From IMG/VR virus record IMGVR_UViG_3300031953_000013, positions 1 to 56,853 of that record: a stretch of DNA of 56,853 nt; one strand, 5' to 3'. A program made the translations under genes and the position numbers. The stretch comes from a virus. Taxonomy: Duplodnaviria; Caudoviricetes. Positions 128-56,853 of the stretch are shown in pieces (positions within the stretch are counted from its first letter, which is position 1; every line of letters begins with the position of its first letter). The notes beneath the pieces were generated by a model. That model did not search any database, was not told the origin of the DNA, and saw nothing but the letters and a program-made list of their open reading frames with translations.

Positions 128-212
128 GGCCATCGAGCGCTTGTTGACGATTAGCGAGACAGATCGTAAAATACAAATTGGGTAGTATATTAAATAAGCA
201 AGGGGAAGGGTC

Positions 213-659
213 ATGGCAGTAGGTAACTTCACGTTTTATCATCAAGGCAAACTCTCAAAGCACGACGGCGACATTGATTTGGGTACCGATAGTATTATGT
301 GCATCCTGGTCGCCGCCGCGTATACCCCGGCGGTCACGACCGACGCGACCTATGCGGACGTTAGCGCTAACGAGATCGCGGATACCGATTACGCCCAACA
401 GCTGGTCACCGCTCTGACTTCCAGTATCGACGGCTCCGGGGTTATCACCGTGGATAGCGCTGACGTCCCATTTGGGAACCCGGTCAGCATTACCGCCAAG
501 TACGCGGTATTCGCTAAACGGGCCGGCGCGTCCTTGGTGGCGGGGGACTCGCTTTTGGGGTACGTGGACCTGGACGACACGACTACGGCAGCCGAGGTAT
601 CGTCTACCAACAGCGAGTTTTCCGTGAAAACGCCAAACGGCTTTTACACGCTGACATAA
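213..659 (+). CDS. Putative virion structural protein of the auxiliary fibre module
   Basis: 148 aa, beta-rich. The DxDL..D..(K/M)..L...Y.P pattern is typical of phage minor structural proteins. Co-directional with the adaptor gene. Confidence 0.6.
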   Translation: MAVGNFTFYHQGKLSKHDGDIDLGTDSIMCILVAAAYTPAVTTDATYADVSANEIADTDYAQQLVTALTSSIDGSGVITVDSADVPFGNPVSITAKYAVFAKRAGASLVAGDSLLGYVDLDDTTTAAEVSSTNSEFSVKTPNGFYTLT

Positions 660-671
660 GGAGAGGTTGCC

Positions 672-986
672 ATGACCATTGCGTATAGCGGGGAACCGAC
701 CAGCCTTGGTAAAAAGGACCCGGACTCGAAGGTGGATTACAAGATGGATTGGTCCGCCTATATGGCAGCCCTCGGCAACGATACCATTATGCAATCTGAA
801 TGGCTTGTGGTCGGGTCCATGGTAATCGCCTCGTCACCGGGTCCCAGCTTTACGGATACGGAAACCACCGTCTGGATCGAGGGCGGCGGAGCCGTTGGCG
901 AATCGAATACCATCACCAACCGGGTTACCACCGCTGGTGGGCGTATCGAGGATCGGTCTTTTGTACTTACGGTAGCAGAGCTTTAA
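672..986 (+). CDS. Putative fibre-tail adaptor protein
   Basis: KDPDSKVDYKMDWS and NRVTTAGGRIEDRS motifs; RBS aggag. Confidence 0.65.
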   Translation: MTIAYSGEPTSLGKKDPDSKVDYKMDWSAYMAALGNDTIMQSEWLVVGSMVIASSPGPSFTDTETTVWIEGGGAVGESNTITNRVTTAGGRIEDRSFVLTVAEL

Positions 987-25503: not shown

Positions 25504-27261
25504 ATGCAATACAAAACAGGCACAGCAAGCGTCACAAACGGCTCCGCTGTCGTAACAGGCTCTGGCACGGCATGGTTGGCCAACGTAAGCATAGGTGACG
25601 GGTTCGTTATCGCGGGAATCCCCGCTCCCTACACCGTCTCTGCTGTCGGCACAGACACACAGATCACCCTGTCTGCACCGTGGGCCGGCGCCAGTGCTTC
25701 TGGCTCAGTCTATGCCGTGTTCAGGGACTTCACGACCAACGAGAATCTGCCTGAGCTGTCGAAAGGCGATATTGAGACAGCTACTATCTGGACTAGGGCG
25801 TTAAGGCTTGTTGATGCGCTCGTTGGCGCTGCAACGACTACTAGCAGGGGGACGGTCGAGCAGGCCACCACTCAAGAGGCATTAGACGCAACAGCAGACA
25901 AATATCCTGATGCAGCTGGGGTTCATGCGGCTGCTGAGGTGGTGGTAGCGGCTCACGTTGCAGGGAGTGACCCTCATACGCAGTACGTCCCAAAAGCCAC
26001 AGCCGAGCAGGAATTGCAGGAATACTTTGAACCACGGAGGTCCGGCAACGTGGTATGGAACCAAACGTCAGACACTTTTAGTCGGGAAGGTATGTCCACA
26101 GGAGTCACGCCGATTCATGAACGGATGCGGCGATGCCTGCTGAATGATGATGGTACGGTGAACTATTACCTTAGCCTGAACGACTCAACGCTGAAAGCCG
26201 ACGGGACTGCTGCCGTTCTGGACGGTACCGATGGTCAGGTGATGGTCGAGATTCCTAAGTGCTACGTCCGAGTTTCCACGTTATTTAACGGTGACATTAA
26301 GCGGGAGATTAGTGATTACCCCCGGTCGGGCTTCGTGCTGCACCCTGCGTTCGCTATTGGCGGTGTGTTGGCTCACGATCCCGCGCTGGACATGTGGTAC
26401 TACCAAAATCCAACCGGGGAGAAGTCAGCCACTTACCTCGGTGCGTATCAAGCCAGTGTGTATGACACCAGTGGACTGGCTTATATTGATGGCCTGAACC
26501 TGGACAATAACGACGCTAGGGTGGACTACGCAGCCGACATTCTGGGCTCCGTGTCCGGCCAGTATCCAATGGTCGGTGTCACTCGGTCACAGACGCGACA
26601 ATTGGCCAGTAACCGGGGCTCCAGTTGGTCGCAGATGACGTTCTGGCAATGGTCGCTGGTGAAATTGTTGTTCTTCGTAGAGTACGGTGGCTTTGACGGT
26701 CAGGCTCTGTTAGCAGCCGGTAGTGCCAGTGTAAGTACTGGGTATTCGGCTTCATCGTCCGTCCAGACCGATTCACCCCACTCAGCTGCCGGTAAGTCCA
26801 ATATCGTTGGTAACGGCTCAGGTGGTGTTGATAGCAGCACCCGAGACACTGCATGGATGAGCTACCGGGGAATCGAAAACTTCTGGGGTAACGCATGGCA
26901 GTTCTGCGACGGTTTTAACGTCAACGACTGGATATGGTATGTCAGTAATGACCCTGGTACCTTTACCGATGATACGGCTACCGGGTACAACCAACTCGGT
27001 GTAGCTGCACCGGCGTCAAACGGGTACATCCGGAATGTGCAGCACAACACCCTTGGTGATGTCTTAGCCGACTCGAGTGGTAATTCATCTACCGCGTTTG
27101 CCGATTATTACTACCAGAATCCAGGATGGCGGGGGGCCCGTGTGGGTGGTGCCGCCTCGGATGGTGCGCTTGTCGGTCCGTCTTTTGTCCTTGTGAGTAG
27201 TTCCTCGGGCGTTCGGTATCGGTACGTCTCCGGGCGGCTTGCTTACTCCAAAAATCAATAA
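25504..27261 (+). CDS. Tail fibre / receptor-binding protein, DGR target with C-terminal CLec (FGE-like) domain
   Basis: N-terminal fibre anchor (GTASVTNGS..VTGSGT.W), DPHTQY, VMVEIPK, LHPAF and GIENFWGNAWQFCDG; VR at the 3' end. Confidence 0.88.
   Translation: MQYKTGTASVTNGSAVVTGSGTAWLANVSIGDGFVIAGIPAPYTVSAVGTDTQITLSAPWAGASASGSVYAVFRDFTTNENLPELSKGDIETATIWTRALRLVDALVGAATTTSRGTVEQATTQEALDATADKYPDAAGVHAAAEVVVAAHVAGSDPHTQYVPKATAEQELQEYFEPRRSGNVVWNQTSDTFSREGMSTGVTPIHERMRRCLLNDDGTVNYYLSLNDSTLKADGTAAVLDGTDGQVMVEIPKCYVRVSTLFNGDIKREISDYPRSGFVLHPAFAIGGVLAHDPALDMWYYQNPTGEKSATYLGAYQASVYDTSGLAYIDGLNLDNNDARVDYAADILGSVSGQYPMVGVTRSQTRQLASNRGSSWSQMTFWQWSLVKLLFFVEYGGFDGQALLAAGSASVSTGYSASSSVQTDSPHSAAGKSNIVGNGSGGVDSSTRDTAWMSYRGIENFWGNAWQFCDGFNVNDWIWYVSNDPGTFTDDTATGYNQLGVAAPASNGYIRNVQHNTLGDVLADSSGNSSTAFADYYYQNPGWRGARVGGAASDGALVGPSFVLVSSSSGVRYRYVSGRLAYSKNQ
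27136..27243 (+). repeat. DGR variable repeat (VR)
   Basis: 108-nt ungapped match to 27327-27434; all 25 mismatches lie opposite TR adenines. Confidence 0.95.
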
Positions 27262-27299
27262 TCCATTAAACAGCTAAGGAGACTGATGGCTAAAAACTA

Positions 27300-27525
27300 G
27301 GGGTTCTTTGTTAGGCAGGGAAGGTAGCCCATGTAGGTGGTAACACCTCGAATGGTACGAATGTCAGTCCGTCTTATGTCAATGTGAATAATTCCTCAGG
27401 CAATCGGAATCGGAACATCACCAGGCAACTTGCTATAGATCACAGGAAAACAAAGAATCCCGCCGAGAGGCGTAAACGCATCCCACAAAAGCTTAGTAAA
27501 CCGGATTGGTCTGAAACGCTTGGGC
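27300..27525 (+). ncRNA. Putative DGR RNA (TR plus structured flanks)
   Basis: 13-bp complementary arms at 27300-27312 and 27449-27461; GAGA tetraloop hairpin at 27461-27472. Confidence 0.6.
27327..27434 (+). repeat. DGR template repeat (TR)
   Basis: Nine AAY codons and 30 adenines; non-coding, upstream of the RT. Confidence 0.95.
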
Positions 27526-27549
27526 GCTGTATAGCATTAAAGGATGATT

Positions 27550-28509
27550 ATGAAACGATATGGTAATCTCTTTGACGAGATCGCATCTATGGACAACTTA
27601 CGGGAGGCCCATAGAAAGGCCTCAAAAGGTAAGGGTCATTATACAGAAGTGCTGGAGATAAATAAGTGCAAAGAATTTTACCTCCAGCAGCTACACGATC
27701 AGCTTATAAGTGGTACGTACCAAACCAGCGAGTATCGTGTGATGGAGCGAGTAGAGGGGCGTAAGCTCCGTGTAATACACGTATTGCCTTATTTCCCAGA
27801 CCGGATTGTTCACCATGCCATTATGCAGGTTGTTGGTGGTATCTGGAAACGCTCGCTGATACGGGATACGTTTCAATCTTTGGTAGGTCGTGGCACCTCA
27901 GATGCACGCCGACGTGTGCAGAAAGCCATACGGAATGGAAAACCTACCTACTACCTACAAATGGACGTTAAGAAGTTCTACCCGTCAGTACAACACTGGG
28001 TCAGTAAGCTATGTGTTCGTCGCCATATAAAGTGCCCGCGTACTCTTGCATTACTAGACAACATTATTGAGAGTGTTGAGGGACTGCCTATTGGTAACTA
28101 CATATCACAGATGATAGGTAACATGGTCCTGTCTAGTGTTGATTGGTATGTAAAGCAGGCATTAAAAGCGAAGTATTACTTCCGTTATTGTGATGATCTT
28201 ATTGTACTGGGTTCGTGTAAGAAATGGTTACGGTCAGCACAAAAAAGAATTGAGCAACAGGTGAATAAACTAGGACTTATAATTAAACCCACTTGGATTA
28301 TTCAATCCTTGGAAAGCAACGGTTTAGATTTTTGTGGGTACGCCTTTTTCAGAGACTGCATTCGTCTGCGTGCGACGATCAAGTATAGGTACCTGCAATC
28401 GGTGAACGATAAATGGATAACGAGTATCAACGCTTATTGGGGGTGGTTAAAGCCACTTAACAATAAGGGTCTTTGGCAACCAGGAAGAGAGGTACTGAAA
28501 AATGCTTAA
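27550..28509 (+). CDS. DGR reverse transcriptase
   Basis: MKRYGNLF start, PDRIVHHA, MDVKKFYPS, GLPIGNYISQ (GxxxSQ), YFRYCDD, LDFCGY. Confidence 0.95.
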   Translation: MKRYGNLFDEIASMDNLREAHRKASKGKGHYTEVLEINKCKEFYLQQLHDQLISGTYQTSEYRVMERVEGRKLRVIHVLPYFPDRIVHHAIMQVVGGIWKRSLIRDTFQSLVGRGTSDARRRVQKAIRNGKPTYYLQMDVKKFYPSVQHWVSKLCVRRHIKCPRTLALLDNIIESVEGLPIGNYISQMIGNMVLSSVDWYVKQALKAKYYFRYCDDLIVLGSCKKWLRSAQKRIEQQVNKLGLIIKPTWIIQSLESNGLDFCGYAFFRDCIRLRATIKYRYLQSVNDKWITSINAYWGWLKPLNNKGLWQPGREVLKNA

Positions 28510-54237: not shown

Positions 54238-54470
54238 GCAAGCGATATTCAGAACGCGACATTATTGAGCAGGGCAATTATTACTCCCGCCATACTTCAG
54301 CAATGACGGGCGAGGGGCTGCACAGCAAGTCAGCCATTGCCGCCGATCTAAAAGCCGAAGACCGGGCGGAGCGCCTTTATCGGCGAAGCCTCGCCCGCCA
54401 CCCCGACTGTAACGACCCGGACCATCCTGGCTGTGCAAATTGCGAACCACCCGAGGACTTCGAGGGATAG
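54234..54470 (+). CDS. Hypothetical protein with C-terminal Cys motif
   Basis: ATGA overlap; HPDC.DPDHPGCANC. Confidence 0.55.
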   Translation: MSKRYSERDIIEQGNYYSRHTSAMTGEGLHSKSAIAADLKAEDRAERLYRRSLARHPDCNDPDHPGCANCEPPEDFEG

Positions 54471-54528
54471 GTGCGTACCTAATACGCTTCCTTTATACTT
54501 TGTAAAACCTCTTTACAAGGGAACTCGG

Positions 54529-54738
54529 ATGCCACCTAAAGCGCCACCCAAAAAACCCATCCCTACTCGCCGGGACTTTAATGTCTTATTGAAGGAGATG
54601 GCGACCATTATTGAAGAACGTATGGTTGGGTTCGGGTCCGACCCACGCAGCCCGGCCGACGTTGATAATTTTGTTAACGGCATTGCCGTCGCCAAAAAAT
54701 TAAAGATTTTACTTACCGTGGAAATGGACGAGGAGTAA
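54529..54738 (+). CDS. Hypothetical protein
   Basis: ATG at 54529, MPPKAPPKK... Confidence 0.5.
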   Translation: MPPKAPPKKPIPTRRDFNVLLKEMATIIEERMVGFGSDPRSPADVDNFVNGIAVAKKLKILLTVEMDEE

Positions 54739-54809
54739 CCCGTGCACTACGTACCCGGCCAGAACGCTGCTAAAGCAGAGCTAAGCTGTACGACAGAGGT
54801 CAAGTAACA

Positions 54810-55613
54810 GTGAGCGCAACCACCCCCATAAACCTCGGCGTTACCAACATCCTGGCGACCTCAGTACGTTTTATTTGGGAGTCTGGTACCTTCACCCCCA
54901 CTTCATTATTCACAAATGGAGAAAGCGGCGCTTGGTACGACCCTAGTGATTTATCAACACTCTTCCAAGATTCAGCGGGTACTACTCCGGTCACAGCAGA
55001 CGGTGATCCGGTTGGTTTGATGCTGGATAAATCTGGCAATGGCAATCACGCCAGTCAATCAGTCAGTGCATCAAGACCGGTCTACCGTACAGACGGTGTG
55101 TTGCATTGGCTTTCTTTTGACGGTGTTGATGATTGGATGCAGGCAGATGGATTTTCGTGGCTGACGACAGGAACAGCAAAGCAAATATCTGGTGCTGGGT
55201 ATAGAAACACTGGGGGTCCGGGCTATTTGCTGCATTCCTCCGGTGATAGCGTTTCAGCTCCTGGAATTCAATACGCCTATGTAATGCAAACTACCAATAA
55301 CAATGGATTCTTTAGATTTGGTACTGATACAAACGTTTCTCAATCTGTTGGTCTTAAAGATATTATGTCATCAACATACGATGTGTCTTTGTTAGCCGCT
55401 TCCGGCGGGGTGTCTGGGGAAATAAATAGCCTAGGCGTTCAAAATGTCATTGACGGTATTGATACATTAACAATAGGCTGTAGAACGCCAAGCAACCCCT
55501 CAGTATTTTGGGAGGGTGATTTATACGGTGTTGTTATTTCTGAATCTTACATCCCTGATAAATTACCTGACTTAAACAACTATTTAGCAGATAAGGCAGG
55601 GGTAACCCTATGA
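54810..55613 (+). CDS. Concanavalin/LamG-like fibre or decoration protein
   Basis: GAWYDPSDLSTLFQDSAGTTPVTADGDPVG..LDKSGNGNHA, FDGVDD and YLA.KAG motifs. Confidence 0.7.
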   Translation: MSATTPINLGVTNILATSVRFIWESGTFTPTSLFTNGESGAWYDPSDLSTLFQDSAGTTPVTADGDPVGLMLDKSGNGNHASQSVSASRPVYRTDGVLHWLSFDGVDDWMQADGFSWLTTGTAKQISGAGYRNTGGPGYLLHSSGDSVSAPGIQYAYVMQTTNNNGFFRFGTDTNVSQSVGLKDIMSSTYDVSLLAASGGVSGEINSLGVQNVIDGIDTLTIGCRTPSNPSVFWEGDLYGVVISESYIPDKLPDLNNYLADKAGVTL

Positions 55614-56008
55614 GCACGCAATACACCCATCGAGTTACCATAGCCTGCCCCGAACACATGATAGCCAGCGCCAACCAACTGGCGCTCATAAAAGGTGAGT
55701 CTTCGGCAGACGACCAGACGTTCCTAACGGCACGCTATGCAGACTCAACCGACAACCTGTTTGCCATATGCTCAACCGTGGTTACTGAGGGATTTCTTGC
55801 GCTTGAGAATGGCCTGCCTGACGTGCTACCGGATCACGCTATAAGTGCTGACAGGGCAATGGCACAGAGCGCGTTCGATAAGCTGGTCATCTGGCATAGC
55901 GGAGAACTTGATTATAGTGCGCTGACGGTTGCCATTGACATTGATCCGCAGGAAGTCATTAGGCAATGGAAGGTCAAGGCGGTTGAACAGGAAGAGTTAA
56001 ATGTTTAA
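55610..56008 (+). CDS. Hypothetical partner of the LamG-like protein
   Basis: ATGA overlap with the previous gene. Confidence 0.6.
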   Translation: MSTQYTHRVTIACPEHMIASANQLALIKGESSADDQTFLTARYADSTDNLFAICSTVVTEGFLALENGLPDVLPDHAISADRAMAQSAFDKLVIWHSGELDYSALTVAIDIDPQEVIRQWKVKAVEQEELNV

Positions 56009-56041
56009 GCCGCTTATGCGCTTCACGTGGGAGCAAGGCTA

Positions 56042-56853
56042 GTGTCGTATACGCTTGAATGGCGGCTAGTGGCAGGCCCGGGGGCGACGACTACTGTAAC
56101 GGGTATCACCGACCCGTTCTACGACCTGTCTGGCCTAACAGAAAGCACAGATTATGAGTTCAGGGTATTAGAGACTGACGGAACTACGCCTTCTGCGTTC
56201 TCGGCTTGGTACTCGTTTACTTCTGGTACCCCGGCAACGCCGTCCATCGGGGTCGCTAGTATATCGTTGTCCATGCAGCCATCGACTATCGGAATCGGAC
56301 AAGGGCTGGATTTCGGTCCAGCGTCGGTTCTGGTTACCGGGTTGGCTGGGCAAGTTGTTAGCGGAGGGTGGACGGGCTCGGTTGGAAACGTCGCCAAGGT
56401 AATAACCGTAGTTCAATTTGGTAGCGCTATTGGTGGGGCCCTTTCCCAAGGCCCGGCTAGCCTTGTGATAACCACAAAAGCACCCTCGGTATCCGCCGGG
56501 CATGCCGAGGCCACGCTAAAAGGCCAAATCTCTATCCAAACTAAAGGCTTCGGGTACGCGACTGGGGCCGGCCTCAGTTTAACGCCGACTGTGGAGGCCA
56601 TCCAAGAGGTGGCCTTTGGTATTGCTGCAGGCGGAGGTTTCGGTTTCGGGGGCGGGTCCCTTACTATTAACCCGCAACTCGTAGAAATGGTACTTGGTTT
56701 GTCTCTTGGGTTCCAAGCGCAATCCATTACGATAAATACCAGTAAATTCGGACTGGCCTACTTCACAACGACGCCGGGGTTTCGTACCATTGAAATCCCA
56801 TTAATGGACGTCACCTTGGGGGTCCCATTAATGGACGTCACCTTGGGGGTCCC
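56042..56853 (+). CDS. Fn3-containing structural protein (289 aa) continuing across the junction to the stop at 183-185
   Basis: Frame translated by hand and open throughout: SYTLEWR...YDLSGLTESTDYEFRV...DRKIQIG*. Absent from the ORF track. Confidence 0.75.
   Translation, partial: MSYTLEWRLVAGPGATTTVTGITDPFYDLSGLTESTDYEFRVLETDGTTPSAFSAWYSFTSGTPATPSIGVASISLSMQPSTIGIGQGLDFGPASVLVTGLAGQVVSGGWTGSVGNVAKVITVVQFGSAIGGALSQGPASLVITTKAPSVSAGHAEATLKGQISIQTKGFGYATGAGLSLTPTVEAIQEVAFGIAAGGGFGFGGGSLTINPQLVEMVLGLSLGFQAQSITINTSKFGLAYFTTTPGFRTIEIPLMDVTLGVPLMDVTLGV
56727..56853. repeat. Terminal direct repeat (copy of 1-127)
   Basis: Exact match. Confidence 0.95.

Follow-up and report, generated by a model that had tools for sequence, protein, structure and literature searches.

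A fibronectin type III domain divided between two genes of a tailed phage: a putative plug-and-socket joint

Introduction

In chaperone-usher pili, each subunit contains an incomplete immunoglobulin (Ig)-like sandwich that is completed by a strand of its neighbour, resulting in very stable, non-covalent chains of subunits. Here, we describe a phage locus encoding a fold that is incomplete in a comparable manner. The locus is part of the IMG/VR virus record IMGVR_UViG_3300031953_000013 (Duplodnaviria; Caudoviricetes), of which positions 1-56,853, i.e. the full length, were analysed and are termed the window throughout. In the window, a fibronectin type III (Fn3) domain is distributed over two genes, of which the one at 54810-55613, termed plug gene, encodes strands A-B and the one starting at 56042, termed socket gene, encodes strands C-G, making the domain a candidate joint between two proteins. 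As in donor-strand complementation of pili, the fold is encoded in an incomplete state, with the missing strands residing on another protein, and protein chains are encoded at two related loci (L105 and L139). In contrast to pili, where a pilin misses the single G strand, two strands (the Fn3 A-B hairpin) are missing here; the partners would be unlike each other (cargo and fibre) instead of being repeated pilin subunits, the plug may be located at either terminus and the setting would be a phage virion. Furthermore, pilus assembly depends on a dedicated periplasmic chaperone and an usher, neither of which is expected in a phage.

Ig-like and Fn3 modules decorate fibre and tail proteins of phages and have been shuffled between them, some by way of programmed frameshifting. 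In these proteins, the whole domain is contained in one chain, whereas in the present case it is encoded by two genes in varying frame relations. High-affinity reassembly of an Fn3 domain from two engineered fragments, cut in a loop, has reportedly been obtained by Dutta, Batori, Koide and Koide in 2005, as the title of that work says. In contrast to such laboratory constructs, the split described here is natural, lies at the gene level, has a conserved cut and is proposed to serve cargo attachment. Full-text literature searching retrieved no account of a phage Fn3 connector that is naturally split at the level of genes.

A phage precedent for the complementation of folds between separately encoded proteins is podophage A1002, whose tail proteins, with a split nozzle among them, fill each other's missing β-strands, referred to as 'structural complementation' (PMC13730344). 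The chain-like fibre of GP4 and A1002 is built by a rope protein that binds serial fibre dimers by β-sheet augmentation; in the text of that paper, the terms 'FN3' and 'fibronectin' have 0 occurrences each (PMC13730344). As a point in common with these fibres, the socket gene of the window is immediately followed by genes for a Fiber-I-fold protein and a gp77-like adaptor. In contrast to A1002 and GP4, the phage is a siphovirus, the joint would be an Fn3 domain and the socket protein is a putative rope.

Results

Two genes encode complementary parts of one Fn3 domain

The plug gene (54810-55613, plus strand, GTG start) encodes a protein of 267 amino acids, the N-terminus of which, MSATTPINLGVTNILATSVRFIWESG, is in frame with a LamG/ConA-like domain downstream. 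Fn3 strands A-B are formed by residues 4-26, TTPINLGVTNILATSVRFIWESG (54819-54887), as delineated by profile matches. The socket gene (56042-56853 and on to 128-185, plus strand) encodes 289 amino acids; its product starts with VSYTLEWR at the GTG codon at 56042, comprises strands C-G (56045-56224) followed by a Gly/Ser/Thr-rich tail and ends at the stop codon at 183-185. Thus, all seven Fn3 strands are not found in one polypeptide in the window, A-B and C-G being located in different open reading frames (ORFs).

For mapping of the two halves, a profile of the intact Fn3 domain with 85 positions was derived from 19 intact repeats of the closest cellular relatives. Residues 6-25 of the plug protein aligned to positions 1-20, which is a weak match by itself (E = 1.3), given the length of 20 residues, and residues 2-60 of the socket protein aligned to positions 26-84 (E = 5e-12). 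It follows from these positions that the two halves are complementary and non-overlapping, with the cut in the B-C loop. The relatives described below gave the same picture on this profile, with 75 of 76 upstream proteins matching positions 1-19 at a distance of no more than two residues from the C-terminus, and 84 of 84 downstream proteins matching positions 26-85 from residue 2 on. A preliminary description of this DNA, made from its letters and ORFs, had read the gene at 54810 as Fn3 strands A-B followed by a LamG-like domain and had placed strands C-G at the start of the ORF at 56042; both assignments agree with the profile data.

In the complete genome, a profile of the A-B peptides of other loci had a single match, at 54804-54887 (E = 1e-15), and the C-G profile had a single match as well, which corresponds to a stoichiometry of one plug and one socket. 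In the Fn3 family, strands C-G are marked by a tyrosine in strand C and the motif Y-x-F/W-R-V in strand F. Pfam fn3 (PF00041) aligned to the socket protein over its positions 28-76 of 84, with a score below the cut-off (E = 0.0065; 17.1 bits, cut-off 25), and in FN3con chains of the PDB the alignment to it did not begin before residue 30 or 43; beyond the Fn3 part, the socket protein had no sequence match to any PDB chain. Both halves are missed by gene callers and domain databases, with Pfam giving no match for the plug and a sub-threshold one for the socket.

A search with the socket protein among 1.84 billion cluster representatives revealed two kinds of relatives. Large cellular proteins contain many intact Fn3 repeats, in which a segment P-x-x-L...T-S-A-x-L-x-W directly precedes the Y-x-L-x-W-R strand, whereas the phage-like proteins are devoid of this segment; at least 21 representatives (50% identity level) start at residue 1 with M-(S/A)-Y-N-(L/V/I)-E-W-R.

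The split and its junction are conserved among relatives

DNA surrounding relatives of the C-G unit was fetched from 16 viral and 80 metagenome loci (L numbers), yielding 75 distinct junction sequences, 71 of which include at least 75 nucleotides (nt) of upstream DNA. The C-G units of these relatives are 58%-87% identical to that of the window. In 67 of the 71 junctions, the ORF directly upstream ends in the A-B peptide, the last five residues being NWEQG in 52 of the 67. Stop and start codon share one base in 64 of these junctions (TAATG in 43, TGATG in 20, TAGTG in 1), and a Shine-Dalgarno (SD)-like motif lies within the W-E codons in 61. The four exceptions are L118, where the A-B ORF is four codons longer, L162, L126 and L123, the last having too little upstream DNA; in L118, L162 and L126, an A-B-bearing gene still adjoins the C-G gene.

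When profiles of both halves were run over all ORFs, A-B and C-G were found in one ORF in none of 98 sources (0/98), so that relatives with only an intact Fn3 domain, one of the two outcomes that had been named as speaking against the idea, were not encountered among these sources. A second scan of viral contigs with the A-B profile added no further contigs to the first set, and relatives of the C-G unit were found in none of 185,579 prokaryote species, represented by one genome each.

The overlap of stop and start codon could be taken as the site of a programmed -1 frameshift or a similar recoding event, which would yield one chain with an intact Fn3 domain. Indeed, the frame of the downstream gene is offset by -1 from that of the gene before it in 64 of the 67 junctions, a shift at this site would yield a natural B-C loop, and the addition of Ig-like domains to phage structural proteins by frameshifting is known. 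Inspection by eye, however, revealed no conserved slippery heptamer; L086 has T TTA AAC at this site, and the bases differ in L088, L089 and L097. In addition, six stop/start geometries occur among the 67 junctions, or four if the codons used are disregarded. Unusual geometries, of which those of L118 and L096 come on top of this tally, comprise a stop codon, one base and ATG in L147 and L149, a four-codon overlap in L118, an ATGA overlap in L105, and an in-frame TAA ATG as well as a 5-nt gap in L096. In loci of the L081 type, in L096, L139 and L162 and in the window, whole domains or genes separate A-B from C-G, which a local shift would be unable to bridge. Since the frame relations vary and no shared slippery heptamer is seen, recoding is disfavoured, and we regard it as very improbable.

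The plug is under purifying selection and is attached to unrelated cargo proteins

For 59 distinct A-B DNA sequences, the ratio of nonsynonymous to synonymous polymorphism (pN/pS) was 0.29 in the A-B frame versus 1.06 and 1.66 in the two other frames. This indicates purifying selection on the A-B peptide in all of its 22 codons and not only in the ribosome-binding site. Among the complete upstream proteins, 59 in number, 14 groups can be told apart between which BLASTP detects no similarity (E of 1e-5 or better), and yet the last 22 residues of these proteins have a mean identity of 80%. Judged by N-terminal motifs, several ConA/LamG-like types are among these cargo groups. A search of relatives for different cargo fused to the A-B peptide had been suggested as a check in the preliminary description, and these 14 unrelated groups are what it returned. 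As far as can be read from sequence comparison, the combination of a short, conserved end peptide with an otherwise hypervariable protein is the hallmark of docking adaptors.

At L084, L086-L095 and many metagenome loci, many contigs have their start or end within the cargo gene, at a distance of 20-200 nt before the C-G gene. Such contig ends would be in keeping with a break of the assembly at sites where variants that occur together differ in their cargo.

Variant architectures include N-terminal plugs and chains of three proteins

The A-B peptide is located at the N-terminus of the cargo in three sources, namely the window, L162 and L126. In L162, it precedes a LamG-like domain in a protein that is 41% identical to the window's plug protein, and in L126 it precedes an SGNH-like cargo of 580 amino acids. 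A different arrangement is found in loci of the L081 type, where the cargo gene ends with A-B and a stop codon, and the next gene encodes a leucine-rich repeat (LRR) domain of ~330 amino acids in frame with C-G.

Chains of three proteins are encoded in L105 and L139. Of the three L105 genes, the first has a divergent A-B at its end, the second an equally divergent C-G at its start and a typical A-B at its end, and the third a typical C-G at its start. In L139 (106-2864), gene 1 ends after strands A-B-C, which means that the domain is split at another loop; gene 2 encodes a sialidase-like domain, strands C'-G and then a second A-B, and in the product of gene 3 an A-B-less unit immediately follows a LamG domain. 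At the loop where L139 is cut, a domain is inserted within a single chain in P0084 and P0091. In L096, two successive genes end in A-B (E = 9e-14 and 2e-13), and the next protein consists of a peptidase-like domain, two tandem A-B-less units, one divergent and one typical by eye, and an intact Fn3 domain. The two plug/socket pairs within a phage are mutually different in both L105 and L096, which would fit a need to prevent mispairing. Neither recoding nor an accident can account for the variant architectures described here.

Single-chain AlphaFold prediction of L105 gene 2, which combines a socket with a plug, left the plug unstructured (predicted local distance difference test, pLDDT, 43-59) and did not reveal docking in cis; this fold supports neither side, the plug not being the cognate of that socket and 12 alignment rows being misaligned over the socket columns. 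Foldseek searching with this model returned only generic Fn3 and ConA-like/GH16/CBM66 matches.

A few genes upstream of the cargo gene, several loci (L081:1541-1978, L085:522-881, L102:3148-3606 and others) encode a conserved protein of ~145 amino acids, with a hydrophobic leader at the N-terminus and an Fn3-like motif (…SWxAPDTREDGSPL…YRVYY…). It adjoins a DUF1353 protein (Pfam E = 8e-21 in L081).

A cassette separates plug and socket in the window

In the window, a cassette composed of the LamG-like domain and ORF132 (55610-56008, plus strand, 132 amino acids) lies at 54888-56018 on the plus strand. It is followed by a mini-ORF (56001-56042, plus strand) with the translation MFKPLMRFTWEQG from the ATG at 56001 up to the TAG at 56040-56042, which shares its G with the GTG start of the socket gene (TAGTG). 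Reading from the inner ATG at 56016 gives MRFTWEQG and the stop, i.e. the end of strand B, so that the repeat of strand B noted earlier for this mini-ORF holds for its inner-ATG reading. A GGGAG motif at 56029-56033 is situated 8 nt upstream of the socket GTG.

The stretch 56019-56042 is homologous to the cargo-gene ends of L102, L081 and L103 (CGC TTY ACG TGG GAG CAA GGN stop). L102 is the relative whose canonical junction is nearest to that of the window. In blastn comparison, window positions 54818-54882 match the C-terminal A-B codons of L102 at 80%, with mostly synonymous differences, and positions 56019-56211 match its last seven A-B codons together with the C-G unit at 77%. Because both matches meet at the single, contiguous junction of L102, the 1.13-kb stretch 54888-56018 has a copy of the strand-B end on either side, and the two copies have diverged. 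We conclude from this comparison that the mini-ORF, as a remnant of the 3' end of a cargo-A-B gene, is a recombination relic. Presumably, an A-B-LamG-ORF132 module of the L162 kind would have replaced a canonical cargo gene by recombination, with the right-hand crossover inside strand B leaving RFTWEQG-stop, which may still provide a ribosome-binding site and an overlapped start for the socket gene. Contigs of sequencing runs included none that skips or joins across the cassette.

The preliminary description had offered recombination at the WExG codons as one origin of the arrangement and had spoken of a domain split around a cassette. The comparison with L102 is in line with the first part in that a cassette sits between two strand-B ends; the split itself was not created by this event, as 67 of the 71 junctions have it, and is rather ancestral, so that the wording of a domain split around the cassette does not hold.

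Residues 27-266 of the plug protein match PHROG 10356 'virion structural protein' (E = 3e-9). Laminin_G_3 (Pfam PF13385) is matched by 11 of 23 aligned LamG-like relatives, with a best E of 2.2e-7; the window's own copy had no Pfam match at E up to 1, and no PDB chain was matched by the profile of the LamG-like family. A DNA search of phage records returned one match, 168 nt at 69% to a Cobetia phage, located inside the LamG-like domain. ORF132 matched no Pfam or PHROG family, and its ESM Atlas scores were all <0.9; by its position, it is possibly an assembly chaperone. A LamG-like gene and a relative of ORF132 are adjacent in 25 of 81 viral loci.

It might be argued that the arrangement in the window is a recent recombination accident, with a functionless A-B-LamG fusion on its way to loss. 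This would fit the relic mini-ORF and the two diverged strand-B-end copies flanking the cassette, as well as the finding that the A-B peptide occurs in none of the 80 other viral loci with LamG relatives (0/80), where the LamG-like domain is preceded by short N-terminal leaders of another kind or makes up the C-terminus of large fibre-like proteins. Against an accident, L162 has the same order as the window (A-B-LamG, ORF132 relative, C-G) and no relic, the stop codon of the ORF132 relative overlapping the C-G start; since the two proteins share only 41% identity, the A-B-LamG fusion has lasted through long divergence. Furthermore, the A-B differences between the window and L102 are mostly synonymous, the plug gene has its own start four codons ahead of strand A, and the phage is abundant, with identical stretches in contigs from runs of several studies. 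An accident is, hence, improbable in our estimation. On the available comparison, the LamG-like domain rather appears to behave as a mobile tip domain that gained an Fn3 plug in the window.

Genes downstream of the socket resemble parts of a chain-like fibre

Directly downstream of the socket gene, a protein of 148 amino acids (213-659, plus strand) gave an AlphaFold2 model with a pLDDT of 88.8, which VIA-align placed on the GP4 Fiber I fold (8jou_a) with a Z of 8.3 and a root-mean-square deviation of 3.0 over 116 of 136 residues, at rank 2 of 994. A Z near 8 is at the edge of the range of unrelated folds, and Foldseek alone gave E = 0.29. The protein belongs to PHROG 644 and had no sequence match in the PDB. 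The subsequent gene (672-986, plus strand, 104 amino acids) encodes a relative of gp77, the fibre-tail adaptor of GP4 (Pfam PF23148 Gp77, E = 1.9e-22, 80 bits versus a cut-off of 27; 8jou_D, E = 1.3e-4).

In 7 of 7 socket proteins tested, the self-similarity of the tail peaked at an offset of 20 or 22 residues, above 95% of shuffles. For the socket protein of the window, the periodicity was marginal (-0.19 versus -0.22), with a weak 22-residue period. Because a repeat tail is combined with Fiber-I-like and gp77-like genes following the socket gene, the socket protein is probably the 'rope' of a chain-like fibre, with the cargo as its exchangeable head.

The gene for a SprT-like protein (Pfam E = 5e-11) at 1100-1915 has the fibre genes on one side and the small terminase region on the other.

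Genome type and population data

The record is a complete viral genome of 56,853 bases with direct terminal repeats, rated 100% complete. The 127-nt terminal repeat (1-127 = 56727-56853) lies inside the socket gene, so that the record ends within a gene, as is expected for a circularly assembled genome. An exact 27-nt tandem duplication (56796-56849, PLMDVTLGV twice) is located in the socket gene and in this terminal repeat. The gene set is that of a siphovirus, with terminase, portal, major head protein, tape-measure protein, tail terminator, distal tail protein and a J-like central fibre. On the circular map, the split-Fn3 stretch sits between early-type genes and the fibre/lysis/packaging block.

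Contigs of 20 sequencing runs (16 studies, with the label brine or aquatic metagenome) contained the stretch, seven of these possibly being its source, and it was very abundant in two DNA runs; gaps in contig cover of run X18 carry no evidential weight. In these two runs, variant contigs depart from the window where ORF132 starts (55608/9) and where the C-G unit ends (56186-56221), with one or two contigs at each site, and one variant continuation resembles a tail of the L083 type. This gives a weak hint that the two module borders are points of exchange. A contig from an RNA library covers 54300-56825 with no difference; transcription cannot be deduced from contigs.

A diversity-generating retroelement was found at 25504-28509. 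Its variable repeat (27136-27243) is a 108-nt repeat at the 3' end of the tail-protein gene 25504-27261 (PHROG 5302) and shares 77% identity with the template repeat (27327-27434), a copy situated 191 nt further downstream, with 25 of 25 mismatches at adenines of the template copy. The template copy is followed by a reverse transcriptase gene (27544-28509; PHROG 1423, E = 2e-93).

Discussion

We consider it reasonably probable that the two Fn3 halves complement each other in trans and, in this way, fasten exchangeable heads, lectins or enzymes, to a rope-like fibre protein with a repeat tail. In the proposed mechanism, the plug protein would contribute only the A-B hairpin with its core tryptophan, and the socket protein, with its strands C-G, would be short of one face of the sandwich, A-B-E. 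Once both proteins have been translated separately, the hairpin would pair with strand E and bury the tryptophan, and the completed fold would lock the two proteins together non-covalently. In the usual arrangement, a variable cargo protein, lectin or enzyme, ends with the plug; the stop codon of its gene overlaps the socket start, and the W-E codons double as ribosome-binding site of the socket gene, whose product continues into an array of 20-22-residue repeats. In the window, a putative, LamG-like tip domain, together with its partner ORF132, carries the plug at its N-terminus instead.

A plug-and-socket joint had been the second option offered in the preliminary description, and the comparative evidence strongly favours it. 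It has gained from the 14 cargo groups, the purifying selection, the presence of A-B at either end of the cargo and the three-protein chains with divergent pairs; the docking itself is putative. In an AlphaFold2 model of the C-G unit, strands C, C', F and G were confident (pLDDT 92-97), and the segment of strand E was not scored as a strand, which is expected if its partner, strand B, is missing.

Covalent locking by an isopeptide bond, as in SpyTag, was dropped, there being no conserved lysine in either half upon inspection of the alignments by eye. An intein or intron was dropped likewise, the flanking ORFs having ordinary stops and starts and the inserts being ordinary domains.

Several observations weigh against a joint of the proposed kind. 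In P0006, P0023, P0059, P0061, P0141 and L139, cargo is fused directly before C-G with no plug in the chain; in the five P-numbered sources, the fused domains are enzymes or lectins. Tandem A-B-less units with no matching plugs in view were found in P0004, P0007, P0013, P0020 and L123/L126, and three such units in P0011, P0035 and P0042. The last five A-B codons hold the ribosome-binding site, which partly explains their conservation, and the 67 junctions do not represent independent lineages, since many of the loci stem from a limited number of related metagenomes. No cultured phage with a C-G unit is contained in 50,697 sequenced phage records, among which the socket protein found no match. 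The identity of the socket protein as a rope is derived from gene order, periodicity and a fold match with a Z of 8.3, and chain-like fibres have been described for podophages, whereas the present phage, as judged by its tape-measure protein and other genes, is a siphovirus.

The tandem and triple units imply that an A-B-less unit may be stable alone or pair with itself. Accordingly, C-G could be a self-sufficient five-strand module, alone or self-paired, with A-B being conserved for another reason: binding of another partner, use as a homology arm or translational-coupling region, or, in the window, persistence as an inert leftover. The high AlphaFold confidence for C-G alone fits this explanation, the SD-like motif in the last A-B codons of 61 of the 67 junctions fits a role in coupling, and the divergence of variant contigs at the module borders would be compatible with an exchange arm. 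On the other hand, purifying selection extends over all 22 A-B codons, beyond the ribosome-binding site. The Fn3 A-B pattern with the core tryptophan is preserved in the peptide, which maps only to profile positions 1-19. Conservation for coupling only is at odds with the retention of A-B at the N-terminus in the window, L162 and L126, where coupling is impossible, and self-sufficiency of C-G is hard to combine with the matched, mutually divergent plugs and sockets of L105 and L096. In view of this, we regard a self-sufficient C-G module as unlikely, while giving it due weight, and retain complementation in trans as the preferred explanation.

On a broader view, for which we see about even chances, this group of phages would possess a family of natural, mutually orthogonal split-Fn3 connectors, each composed of a 22-residue plug and a 60-residue socket, that chain two or three separately encoded proteins and swap receptor-binding or enzymatic heads through exchange of a gene with the plug at its end or its beginning. 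The heads exchanged in this manner might, with the same even prospects, comprise lectins as well as LRR, sialidase-like, esterase-like and peptidase-like domains. If so, the orthogonal pairs of single phages would constitute compact, genetically encoded tags for the joining of proteins, and the modularity of host range would be directly testable with two small recombinant proteins.

For the biology of the phage, a split-Fn3 joint would mean that receptor-binding heads are exchanged without touching the fibre gene, as any gene acquiring the 22-residue hairpin would deliver its product to the fibre tip. This would explain the extreme diversity of cargo beside a conserved junction and the assembly breaks at this site. 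With its retroelement, the phage holds a mutagenic system for varying its adhesins, to which a modular one is apparently added. The joint would be a viral counterpart of donor-strand complementation in pili, realised with an Fn3 domain, and would represent a previously undescribed modular route for the change of phage host range.

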